From NCBI RefSeq assembly GCF_003334815.1, contig NZ_QOWO01000005.1: 64,000 bases of DNA, one strand, 5' to 3'. The stretch is from Escherichia coli. GTDB lineage: Bacteria > Pseudomonadota > Gammaproteobacteria > Enterobacterales > Enterobacteriaceae. Below the pieces are notes generated by a model. It was not told where the DNA came from and searched no databases. It saw nothing but the letters and a program-made list of their open reading frames with translations. The stretch's first letter is position 1; every line of letters starts with the position of its first letter. Below, piece after piece: positions 16,476 through 20,620 of the stretch. A program made the position numbers and the translations under genes.

Positions 16476-16600
16476 CTATTCAGCAGGATAATGAATACAG
16501 AGGGGCGAATTATCTCTTGGCCTTGCTGGTCGTTATCCTGCAAGCTATCACTTTATTGGCTACGGTGATTGGTAGCCGTTCTGGTGGTTGTGATGGTGGT

Positions 16601-17785
16601 ATGAAAAAAGTCATTTTATCTTTGGCTCTGGGCACGTTTGGTTTGGGGATGGCCGAATTTGGCATTATGGGCGTGCTCACGGAGCTGGCGCATAACGTAG
16701 GAATTTCGATTCCTGCCGCCGGGCATATGATCTCGTATTATGCACTGGGGGTGGTGGTCGGTGCGCCAATCATCGCACTCTTTTCCAGCCGCTACTCACT
16801 CAAACATATCTTGTTGTTTCTGGTGGCGTTGTGCGTCATTGGCAACGCCATGTTCACGCTCTCTTCGTCTTACCTGATGCTCGCCATTGGTCGGCTGGTA
16901 TCCGGCTTTCCGCATGGCGCATTTTTTGGCGTCGGAGCGATCGTGTTATCAAAAATTATCAAACCCGGAAAAGTCACCGCCGCCGTGGCGGGGATGGTTT
17001 CCGGGATGACAGTCGCCAATTTGCTGGGCATTCCGCTGGGAACGTATTTAAGTCAGGAATTTAGCTGGCGTTACACCTTTTTATTGATCGCTGTTTTTAA
17101 TATTGCGGTGATGGCATCGGTCTATTTTTGGGTGCCAGATATTCGCGACGAGGCGAAAGGAAATCTGCGCGAACAATTTCACTTTTTGCGCAGCCCGGCC
17201 CCGTGGTTAATTTTCGCCGCCACGATGTTTGGCAACGCAGGTGTGTTTGCCTGGTTCAGCTACGTAAAGCCATACATGATGTTTATTTCCGGTTTTTCGG
17301 AAACGGCGATGACCTTTATTATGATGTTAGTTGGGCTAGGGATGGTGCTGGGAAATATGCTAAGTGGCAGGATTTCAGGACGTTATTCACCACTGCGCAT
17401 TGCAGCAGTGACTGACTTTATAATTGTACTGGCACTGCTGATGCTCTTTTTCTGCGGCGGCATGAAAACAACGTCGCTTATTTTTGCTTTTATTTGTTGC
17501 GCGGGATTATTTGCCCTTTCAGCACCGCTACAAATATTGTTACTACAAAACGCCAAAGGCGGAGAGTTATTAGGTGCCGCAGGTGGGCAAATAGCGTTTA
17601 ACCTCGGTAGCGCCGTCGGCGCATATTGCGGAGGTATGATGCTGACGCTGGGGCTGGCATATAATTACGTGGCGCTGCCTGCCGCCCTGCTTTCGTTTGC
17701 TGCGATGTCGTCGTTGCTGCTGTATGGTCGCTATAAGCGCCAGCAAGCGGCGGATACTCCGGTGCTGGCGAAACCACTGGGGTAG
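16601..17785 (+). CDS. araJ: MFS transporter AraJ
   Basis: Recognised start MKKVILSLALGTFGLGMAEF inside ORF 16517..17785; 12-TM MFS profile. Confidence 0.85.
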   Translation: MKKVILSLALGTFGLGMAEFGIMGVLTELAHNVGISIPAAGHMISYYALGVVVGAPIIALFSSRYSLKHILLFLVALCVIGNAMFTLSSSYLMLAIGRLVSGFPHGAFFGVGAIVLSKIIKPGKVTAAVAGMVSGMTVANLLGIPLGTYLSQEFSWRYTFLLIAVFNIAVMASVYFWVPDIRDEAKGNLREQFHFLRSPAPWLIFAATMFGNAGVFAWFSYVKPYMMFISGFSETAMTFIMMLVGLGMVLGNMLSGRISGRYSPLRIAAVTDFIIVLALLMLFFCGGMKTTSLIFAFICCAGLFALSAPLQILLLQNAKGGELLGAAGGQIAFNLGSAVGAYCGGMMLTLGLAYNYVALPAALLSFAAMSSLLLYGRYKRQQAADTPVLAKPLG

Positions 17786-17809
17786 GTTATAGTCTCGGTG
17801 CTCATTACT

Positions 17810-18012
17810 TATTGCCGGATGCGGCGTGAACGCCTTATCCGCCCTACGCGGTTCTGGCACATTTTGCAGGCCTGATAAGACGCGGCAAGCGTCGCATCAG
17901 GCATCGGAGCACTTATTGCCGGATGCGGCGTGAACGCCTTATCCGGCCTACGGTTCTGGCACCTTTTGTAGGCCTGATAAGACGCGGCAAGCGTCGCATC
18001 AGGCATGATGCG
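17810..18012. repeat. REP/BIME cluster (tandem palindromic units)
   Basis: Two copies of gccggatgcggcgtgaacgccttatccg[g]cctac...aggcctgataagacgcggcaagcgtcgcatcaggca. Confidence 0.85.
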
Positions 18013-18029
18013 CCAATTGCCTACGTTTT

Positions 18030-18938
18030 TTACTCTTGTGGCCATAACCACGCAGCGCCGCGTACGCCGCTGGAATCACCGTGCTTCGCCTTACGCACCG
18101 GCGTTTCACATTCGCCGCCGAAGACAAATTGTTTAATCAACTGCCCAACCGTTTGATATAAACGGTCTACATTGCTCATCCCGCCCCCCAGGACAATCAC
18201 ATCCGGATCGAGAATATTCACGACATGTGCCAGCGATTTTGCCAGCCGCAGCTCGTAGCGACGCAATGCCAGTTCCGCTACCGGATCGCTTTCTTCAACC
18301 AGGCGGATAATTTCACTGCCTTTCAGCGCATGTCCGCTCAAACGACGATAATCCATCGCGAATCCCGTGCCCGAAATAAAGGTTTCAATACAACCTTGTT
18401 TACCGCAATAACAAGGGACTTCCTCGCGATAACGCAGTTCGTCTTCGTCCATCCACGGTAGCGGATTGTGTCCCCACTCACCTGCCGTGCCATTGCCGCC
18501 GATATGCGCCCGCCCATTGAATGCCACGCCCGCGCCGCATCCCGTGCCGATAATCACGGCAAATACCGTCTGCGCTCCCGCTGCCGCGCCATCTACTGCT
18601 TCTGAAACCGCCAGACAGTTAGCGTCATTTGCCAGCCGCACTTCCCGCTGCAACCTCGCGCTTAAGTCTTTATCGAATGGCTGACCGTTGAGCCAGGTTG
18701 AATTGGCATTCTTCACCACACCGGTGTAAGGCGAAATTGAGCCAGGAATGCCCATACCTACCGTTCCGCGCTGCCCCGTCGCCTGCTCCGCCATATCAAC
18801 CAACGTGGCGATCGTTTCAATAGTCTGCCGGTAATCATCACGCGGCGTGGGCAGACGATGGCGGTACAACTGCTCCCCTGCATCGCCCAGTGCAATCACT
18901 TCAGTTTTGGTGCCGCCTAAATCGATACCTATACGCAC
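18030..18938 (-). CDS. mak: Fructokinase / manno(fructo)kinase, ROK family
   Basis: ORF 18030..19076(-); recognised N-terminus (V/M)[13 protein letters not shown] with GTG start about 18938; ROK sugar-kinase motifs. Confidence 0.85.
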
Positions 18939-19062
18939 GGTACTCTCCTTATTTTTTTCAATATCAATAGCGTAGAGACGGACAACCGGATTGGCAATGC
19001 AAGGCCGCCGACAATTCGTTATCATGCCCGCTAAATTTAACGACAAGGCCGTGGAAATTATC

Positions 19063-19974
19063 ATGCTGTGGTTCAAAAATTTAATGGTTTACCGTCTTAG
19101 CCGCGAGATTTCGCTGCGTGCAGAAGAGATGGAAAAACAGCTAGCCTCGATGGCATTTACCCCATGCGGCAGCCAGGACATGGCGAAGATGGGCTGGGTT
19201 CCTCCGATGGGATCGCACAGCGATGCGTTAACGCACGTTGCCAATGGTCAAATTGTTATCTGCGCGCGCAAAGAAGAAAAAATCCTCCCGTCTCCGGTGA
19301 TTAAACAGGCGCTGGAAGCGAAAATCGCCAAACTGGAAGCGGAACAGGCGCGTAAGCTGAAGAAAACCGAAAAAGATTCGCTGAAAGACGAAGTGCTGCA
19401 CTCTCTGCTGCCGCGTGCTTTCAGCCGTTTTAGCCAGACAATGATGTGGATCGACACGGTTAACGGTTTGATTATGGTGGACTGCGCCAGTGCCAAAAAA
19501 GCGGAAGATACGCTGGCATTACTGCGTAAAAGCCTGGGGTCGTTACCGGTTGTACCATTGAGCATGGAAAACCCGATTGAACTGACGCTGACCGAATGGG
19601 TTCGCTCCGGTAGTGCGGCACAGGGCTTCCAGCTGCTTGATGAAGCCGAGCTGAAATCGTTGCTGGAAGATGGCGGCGTGATCCGCGCGAAGAAACAAGA
19701 TCTGACCAGCGAAGAGATCACCAATCACATTGAAGCCGGAAAAGTGGTGACTAAACTGGCGCTCGACTGGCAGCAGCGCATTCAGTTTGTGATGTGCGAC
19801 GATGGTTCGCTCAAGCGTCTGAAGTTCTGCGACGAGCTGCGCGATCAAAACGAAGATATCGACCGTGAAGATTTCGCCCAGCGTTTTGATGCCGATTTCA
19901 TCCTGATGACTGGTGAACTGGCAGCGTTAATTCAAAACCTGATTGAAGGATTAGGTGGCGAAGCACAACGTTAA
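19063..19974 (+). CDS. rdgC: Recombination-associated protein RdgC
   Basis: Recognised start [16 protein letters not shown] within ORF 18991..19974 (303 aa). Confidence 0.9.
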
Positions 19975-19989
19975 TTGCTGATTTTCCTT

Positions 19990-20035
19990 TAATGCCGGAT
20001 GCGACGCCTGCCGCGTCTTATCCGGCGTACGAAGC
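19990..20035. repeat. REP element
   Basis: tgccggatgcgacgcctgccgcgtcttatccggcgtac. Confidence 0.7.
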
Positions 20036-20131
20036 CACACCAGGCATATAATTATTCGCTACGGCGAGCAATAATTTTTAGCGCAGCAATATTATGCGTT
20101 TTACGCTGTAACTTGCTCCATGGACGTTGTG

Positions 20132-20413
20132 TCATTGTTTTTCCTCAAGCCGGTGACGCGCTTCACTGCGAATTTTCCGCGTTGCCCCGGTTTTCACTAA
20201 ATCACGTAACAGCGAAAGATCGGGTTGTTCGACAAATAAGAGTAATGATGGATCCTCTTTTAACCACGCCGTTTTCACATCGGCAGCCAGCTGTGGATTA
20301 TTAATAGCCAGCGACCGATCCTGAGGCTCAGTCAATGTCGTTAACAACAACGCCGGGGTATGTGCGTTGCGCAATGCCGTTTGGCGTAAATGATCATTGC
20401 GACTTTGCAGCAA
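20132..20413 (-). CDS. ykiA: Small hypothetical protein (ykiA-like)
   Basis: 93-aa ORF in the position K-12 annotates as ykiA; no recognisable domain. Confidence 0.4.
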   Translation of the reverse strand: MLQSRNDHLRQTALRNAHTPALLLTTLTEPQDRSLAINNPQLAADVKTAWLKEDPSLLLFVEQPDLSLLRDLVKTGATRKIRSEARHRLEEKQ

Positions 20414-20620
20414 TGCACGCCACCATTCATCATCTGATTTATCTTTTATCGTAGCCAGTTCCGCAACAATATCTGGAGATCTTCACTGATATTTATATCA
20501 ACCTTGATAAATTATGAATATATCGGAAATTGAAAAAATCGCAGCAAAGGAAATATTATTATGGGCTAAAGAAAGGATATTTCAGAAAAATGCCCTCCCG
20601 TTCAAGGGGAAGGCGAGGAA

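Follow-up and report, generated by a model that had tools for sequence, protein, structure and literature searches.

A BIME-2 repeat array of two tandem units between the convergent araJ and mak genes of Escherichia coli

Introduction

In the nomenclature of Gilson, Bachellier and Hofnung, as summarised by Ton-Hoang et al. 2012 (PMC3333891), BIME-2 elements are built from y and z2 REPs in inverted orientation, joined by a short S linker and repeated in tandem with a copy number that varies among strains, whereas BIME-1 elements combine z1 REPs with a long, IHF-binding L linker. BIMEs serve as substrates for cleavage and recombination by TnpA_REP in vitro (PMC3333891), and REPs are known as specific insertion targets of IS1397 (PMC1525189).

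Several activities have been attributed to these repeats. In RNA, REP hairpins shield the message upstream of them against 3' exonucleases, and they mark the ends of many transcripts terminated by Rho (PMC6061677). Attenuation of transcription by BIMEs has been reported (Espeli et al. 2001, as cited in PMC4550694 and PMC6061677), and the effects on translation cited in PMC12306157 concern REPs within 15 nt of a stop codon. In DNA, Topo-seq has shown that gyrase cleavage sites are enriched in BIME-2 elements generally, mostly in y REPs (PMC6379681). The best-studied relative for the present purpose is REP325, a BIME-2 array of six repeats between yjdM and yjdN for which HU binding and a nucleoid phenotype have been shown; one of its Y-Z2 units is naRNA4, which binds HU (Qian et al. 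2015, PMC4550694).

Here we describe the repeat between araJ and mak. We conclude, with a probability of about 0.93, that the region is a BIME-2 of two tandem Y/inverted-Z2 units between convergent genes, that it is non-coding and that the 80-aa open reading frame lying across it is an artefact. The array is real, it is already known in kind and in place, and it holds no new biology. A literature search on REPs at araJ or on b0395, the former name of the reading frame, returned only unrelated papers and nothing pertinent.

Results

We analysed a stretch of 64,000 nucleotides of E. coli DNA (the window), in which positions 16582-20582 are the reverse complement of E. coli K-12 MG1655 408500-412500 with 0 mismatches. 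The genes araJ (16601-17785, + strand) and mak (18030-18938, - strand) converge on a gap of 244 bp (17786-18029). Expression of araJ depends on AraC. In the gap Tandem Repeats Finder detects a single array, at 17807-18006, with a period of 102, 1.9 copies and 94% matches, and a direct-repeat search finds that the unit halves recur at spacings of 104 and 102 nt; the array comprises two BIME-2 units, of 104 and 102 nt, with four REPs. The initial annotation had placed a cluster of two tandem REP-containing units between convergent araJ and mak at 17810-18012, only a few bases off the measured limits, and had proposed REP consensus alignment as a check. Both the arrangement and the identification held up: tandem-repeat and consensus searches agree on two units, and each of the four REPs aligns with 0-1 mismatch.

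The REPs alternate in inverse orientation, Y(+), Z2(-), Y(+), Z2(-), as palindromes of 34 or 37 nt with the foot CTAC/GTAG in three of the four and GCAG in the remaining one. Y REP no. 1 (17814-17847, +) follows the end of the araJ stop codon after 28 nt. Its single mismatch to the Y consensus falls in the stem (CCGCCC for CCGGCC) and thereby leaves it with the weaker hairpin (-14.5 kcal/mol as RNA). A tail-to-tail short linker of 18 nt (GCGGTTCTGGCACATTTT, 17848-17865) leads to Z2 REP a (17866-17902, -; -20.4/-21.3 kcal/mol), which has one mismatch to the Z2 consensus, GCAG for GTAG in the foot. The two units are joined by a head-to-head linker of 15 nt (ATCGGAGCACTTATT, 17903-17917), at which B2-type alleles carry about 26 nt more. 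Beyond it lie Y REP no. 2 (17918-17951, +), a perfect match to consensus (-21.3 kcal/mol), a second tail-to-tail short linker of 16 nt (GGTTCTGGCACCTTTT, 17952-17967) and Z2 REP b (17968-18004, -), again perfect. Searches of 100 dinucleotide-preserving shuffles with the Y and Z2 consensus gave 0 matches.

A spacer of 25 nt (18005-18029) separates Z2 REP b from the mak stop codon (18030-18032). Within this spacer are another copy of GCCTAC (18019-18024) and the start of a run of six T (T6, 18025-18030) whose last T is the first base of that stop codon. On the + strand the spacer GCCTAC can pair with GTAGGC of Z2 REP b, with G and T6 following directly. The segment 18005-18030 is nearly unchanged in three aligned alleles.

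The MG1655 RefSeq record lists no REP features in the araJ-mak gap. Because it lists none anywhere we checked, the gap after yaaX included as a control, their absence here is uninformative.

The repeat belongs to a dispersed, high-copy and extragenic family. With the 601-nt query, all 5426 of 5426 complete E. coli genomes gave matches, at a median of at least 33 places per genome. The window itself holds 12 further REP matches outside araJ-mak: 10 are near full length and lie in two more BIME-2 arrays, and the other 2 are a shorter Z2-type match after rdgC and a fragment. One of these arrays (Y, Z2, Y, Z2; 48964-49150) also lies between convergent genes, frmB and yaiL. The other, between mhpE and mhpT (about 51121-51354), has about five REPs in the opposite orientation. 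The two tail-to-tail linkers at araJ-mak are nearly identical to each other and show no relation to the linkers of the window's two further arrays; such likeness within a locus but not between loci is expected from local amplification. After rdgC, the lone Z-type REP (19994-20035) lies about 20 nt past the stop codon, and the published primary rdgC 3' terminus (MG1655 409047-409055, supplements of PMC10687069) maps at its foot.

The araJ-mak gap folds far more stably than its shuffles on either strand (z-scores -5.65 and -5.37), and on either strand the four palindromes form hairpins of -14.5 to -21.3 kcal/mol with a predicted internal mismatch. Across copies and alleles, a small sample of 6 and 8 distinct sequences, pairing holds in 97.2% and 99.0% of stem cells, against 30-54% in slid controls. 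Compensatory double changes maintain pairing at two pairs in Y and one in Z2, so that complementarity is kept between copies. Small as the sample is, this is what a structure-constrained repeat would be expected to show.

These properties place the locus among described elements. The four palindromes are REPs of Y and Z2 type in their length of 30-40 nt, conserved foot, copy number, dispersal and stem complementarity. The array alternates y and z2 REPs, has short linkers and is repeated in tandem with a variable number of units, and because every sequence-level feature of BIME-2 is present we assign it to that class. It is not a BIME-1, RIP or RIB: its REPs are of z2 type, tandem and closely spaced, and the IHF consensus WATCARNNNNTTR has no match in 17786-18029.

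A covariance-model search assigned part of the array to the Rfam family naRNA4 (RF02564): the segment 17869-17948 on the - strand (mak-sense), a head-to-head arrangement of reverse-complemented Y2, linker and Z2a, reaches 79.8 bits, where the gathering score is 59.5. This threshold is also exceeded at three further sites of the window, one in the frmB-yaiL array (49017-49094, 79.6 bits) and two in the mhpE-mhpT array (51223-51300 and 51124-51199, + strand). Because these pass equally, the match says nothing specific about araJ-mak, and RF02564 in effect models the head-to-head pair of BIME-2.

The reading frame of 80 codons (17809-18051, - strand) opens with GTG and is an exact match to "hypothetical protein b0395 - Escherichia coli (strain K-12)", a sequence deposited in several E. 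coli records. Its peptide is largely a translation of the repeat: MPDATLAASYQAY is one frame of Z2, and RPDKAFTPHP and VGRIRRSRRIR are two frames of reverse-complemented Y. By tblastn these peptides recur at the other BIME arrays of the window and at the rdgC REP. The initial annotation had held that the frame lies entirely within the repeat, which is wrong, as only 198 of its 243 nt (81%) fall inside the array; its first 15 codons fall in the spacer of 25 nt and in the final 22 nt of mak, a gene on the same strand but read in a different frame. The accompanying advice not to annotate it was sound. Current MG1655 annotation passes directly from b0394 (mak) to b0396 (araJ), b0395 having been withdrawn, and the 88 sampled RefSeq records that cover the intergenic region carry only araJ and mak features there, with no CDS between them. 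Nor is the frame conserved across alleles: it shrinks to 46 aa in the one-unit allele, and in the B2-type allele it acquires an unrelated middle segment and a stop. Searches of Pfam and NCBIfam found no family match.

Three further reading frames in the window touch REPs. One of 103 aa (48849-49160, -) runs across the frmB-yaiL array and is probably spurious in the same way as b0395; another, of 119 aa (50882-51241, -), overlaps the mhpE-mhpT array; and a third, of 101 aa (19999-20304, +), starts within the rdgC REP, its opening MRRLPRLIR... being a translation of the repeat.

Published maps of RNA 3' ends bear on how the array is transcribed. The TRS analysis of RNAtag-seq data in PMC10687069 (Supplementary Data 3) lists an araJ-sense terminus at 17949-17958 (+; MG1655 411124-411133, dominant position 411126), 172 nt past the araJ stop codon and just 3' of Y REP no. 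2. It is classed as "Distant primary", and no terminus is listed for the 100 nt that directly follow the araJ stop. The terminus is weak, coming from a single study in which one of the three LB libraries gave no significant signal (adjusted p = 1) and the other two gave adjusted p values of 2.5e-5 and 1.2e-4, and the longest U run near it is 4. For the other direction the same study assigns no terminus to mak itself, and lists a mak-sense end at 17729-17737 (-; MG1655 411345-411353) under the class "Antisense araJ". This end lies beyond the whole array and about 50 nt inside araJ, at a non-REP hairpin antisense to the 3' end of that gene.

That hairpin (17729-17782, -) lies within the final 50 nt of araJ coding sequence, and the 3' terminus it bears is the only one mapped in the mak sense. 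Its segment 17733-17755 shows 74% similarity to the Z2 REP core, which may be chance.

Farther along, a bicyclomycin-sensitive, Rho-dependent termination peak in the mak sense is reported at 17398 (-; MG1655 411684 +) in Supplementary file 2 of PMC7815308. It was scored from 800-nt windows (score 4.5, p = 1.4e-8) and lies about 390 nt past the array; the adjoining RNA is C-rich, with a C/G ratio of 2.46. The curated Term-seq list of Adams et al. (PMC7815308) has no 3' end in the array, and expression of mak is low in their data (read counts 66 and 19). A search of SMRT-Cappable-seq supplements for the araJ-mak locus found nothing.

Scanning both strands of 17500-18300 revealed no consensus intrinsic terminator or promoter and, in particular, no G+C-rich hairpin followed by a U-tract. 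The T6 run was considered as an intrinsic terminator and rejected as unproven in that role, the scan being negative and the mapped araJ end lying upstream of it. The spacer GCCTAC together with T6 could act as a weak terminator for araJ read-through, with no 3' end mapped there. We rejected a role in stalling translation, since the gaps between REP and stop codon, 28 and 25 nt, are outside the 15-nt range.

The initial annotation had suggested a bidirectional transcript-stabilising and termination element and had named RNA 3'-end mapping as a check. Half of this agrees with the published ends: an araJ-sense 3' end does fall in the array, at the second Y REP. The mak-sense half does not, its terminus lying beyond the array and inside araJ. 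Since mak-sense RNA crosses the array and the Rho region lies about 390 nt farther on, the array is not a demonstrated bidirectional terminator, and the functional proposal has to be confined to the araJ direction.

To survey alleles, we took a sample of 60 rows in even steps through the ranked E. coli genome matches. The locus spans 601-603 bp, the K-12 size, in 17 records, about 489-500 bp in 30 and 624-625 bp in 11, ST131 strains among them; one record has an insertion in the array, and one match lies elsewhere, at a similar BIME adjoining rayT in a JM109 record. Representatives of each size class showed two units (601-603), one unit (about 489-500) and two units with about 26 nt of extra head-to-head sequence (624-625). 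The short allele of strain 165 is exactly one 102-bp unit shorter. Strain ETEC1717 has another type of two-unit allele, in which two 104-nt units are nearly identical, so that more than one event of duplication or conversion must have occurred.

The insertion, in strain UID2309220007 (NZ_CM142668.1; locus L005, 3687-4801), is an IS1397-family element, annotated as partial, in a one-unit BIME. It sits in the loop of a Z2 REP, GACGCG-TCA[TGAACTG...CAGTTCA]GCA-AGCGTC, where the flanking triplets are TCA and GCA, and provides a natural example of REP-targeted insertion at araJ-mak. The JM109 match (NZ_CP117961.1 228165-228367), under the rayT annotation, is 86% identical to the whole two-unit array. 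This BIME, at the gene for a REP-associated tyrosine transposase, is the REPtron of K-12.

A scan across species used a degenerate pattern of the Mak C-terminus. Among the matches listed, most were ROK kinases of unrelated Proteobacteria, and about 10 enterobacterial loci were useful, with Salmonella, Shigella and E. fergusonii falling outside the sample. In two species of Citrobacter, C. werkmanii and Citrobacter sp. FP75, the alignments of araJ and mak end only about 20 nt apart (L036, 3322-3345; L085, 145-168), and no REP is visible in the displayed sequence downstream at either locus. E. albertii (L054, 3469-3560) has a single Y-like REP after mak, followed by what appears to be the 3' end of sbcC, and tblastn for araJ gave no match there. 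In Superficieibacter electus (L056, 387-800), mak is followed by three tandem units of about 75 nt that belong to another repeat family. Because the Citrobacter genes almost abut without a repeat, the array is, judging from these alignments, a lineage-specific insertion that has since been amplified, and not ancestral to the gene pair.

Discussion

The araJ-mak array differs in nothing of substance from BIME-2 as described: it has alternating inverse y and z2 REPs, tail-to-tail linkers of 16-18 nt that are specific to the locus, a tandem, extragenic position at gene 3' ends and a copy number that differs among strains, its only departures being GCAG for GTAG in one Z2 and a mismatch in one Y stem. 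BIME-1, RIP and RIB elements are built instead from y and z1 REPs around a long IHF-binding L linker. With the REPIN/RAYT (TnpA_REP) system it shares the inverted REP doublet and the conserved GTAG foot, but no RAYT gene lies nearby. It resembles REP325 and naRNA4 in its two-hairpin Y-linker-Z2 unit, which passes the Rfam gathering score; unlike the six-repeat REP325 it has two units, or one in half of strains.

How such an array would work can be outlined from these comparisons. Once transcribed, the REPs would fold into stable hairpins of about -15 to -21 kcal/mol each. In the araJ direction the hairpins may define or protect the mRNA 3' end, which maps to the base of the second Y hairpin. 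Polymerases arriving from mak would read through the array, which would become part of a long 3' UTR, until Rho stops them farther on. A role in defining or protecting the araJ 3' end is thus plausible, with Rho acting on mak-sense polymerases only after they have crossed the array. The araJ-sense end lies at the inner Y hairpin and not at the most distal Z2 hairpin, and this position is not what simple exonuclease trimming from a downstream terminator predicts. Pausing or termination in the linker might account for it, as might endonucleolytic cleavage or noise, the gene being weakly expressed. At the DNA level, gyrase probably binds the array, by analogy with BIME-2 in general; araJ and mak are not named in the Topo-seq supplements that we searched (PMC6379681). 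As to origin, a REP doublet may have been inserted and then amplified locally, through RAYT/TnpA_REP or by unequal recombination.

Other readings of the region deserve weighing. If polymerases stopped inside the array from both sides, it would be a true terminator common to the two genes; its place between convergent genes, its stable hairpins on both strands, the araJ-sense end within it and the attenuation attributed to BIMEs in papers citing Espeli et al. 2001 all fit. Yet neither strand offers a hairpin with a T-run, both the mak-sense terminus and the Rho peak lie past the array, and the convergent pair in Citrobacter manages with about 20 nt and no repeat, so that we regard this reading as unlikely. 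Passage of mak-sense transcription across the array fits a gene for a naRNA4-like, nucleoid-associated non-coding RNA, one whose product would bind HU, bridge cruciform DNA and condense the chromosome. The RF02564 score on the mak-sense strand and the derivation of naRNA4 itself from one Y-Z2 unit of REP325 (PMC4550694) speak for such a gene; the three equally good matches elsewhere in the window, the low expression of mak and the half of E. coli genomes whose single unit lacks the head-to-head pair speak against it, and we regard it as quite improbable. Similarly doubtful is a composite in which a directional array fixes the araJ 3' end at the inner Y, is transparent to mak-sense transcription and yields a naRNA4-like two-hairpin RNA.

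That the 80-aa frame encodes a real small basic protein has almost nothing to commend it beyond the GTG start, the 80 open codons, the deposited hypothetical protein and a unit length of 102 bp that keeps the frame open, at 46 aa, when one unit is lost. Its peptide blocks are Y and Z2 consensus translations shared with unrelated BIME loci, it starts inside mak, it is broken in the B2-type allele and belongs to no Pfam or NCBIfam family, and annotators have withdrawn it; moreover, the substitutions between alleles preserve base pairing. We therefore retain the reading of the region as a non-coding BIME-2.

For annotation, the locus is a reminder that REP/BIME arrays keep yielding reading frames that gene finders call: the araJ-mak case is the retired b0395, and the same window offers two more over its other BIME arrays and a third starting in the lone rdgC REP. 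For the biology of these repeats, araJ-mak shows by example that stopping transcription from both sides is not a necessary property of REP arrays placed between convergent genes, and it illustrates the dynamics of BIME-2 through copy-number change, insertion of IS1397 and absence from Citrobacter. Should the directional reading prove true, the common polymorphism between one and two units would alter the araJ 3' UTR together with the presence of the naRNA4-like unit, and would measurably affect expression or the DNA contacts mediated by HU.
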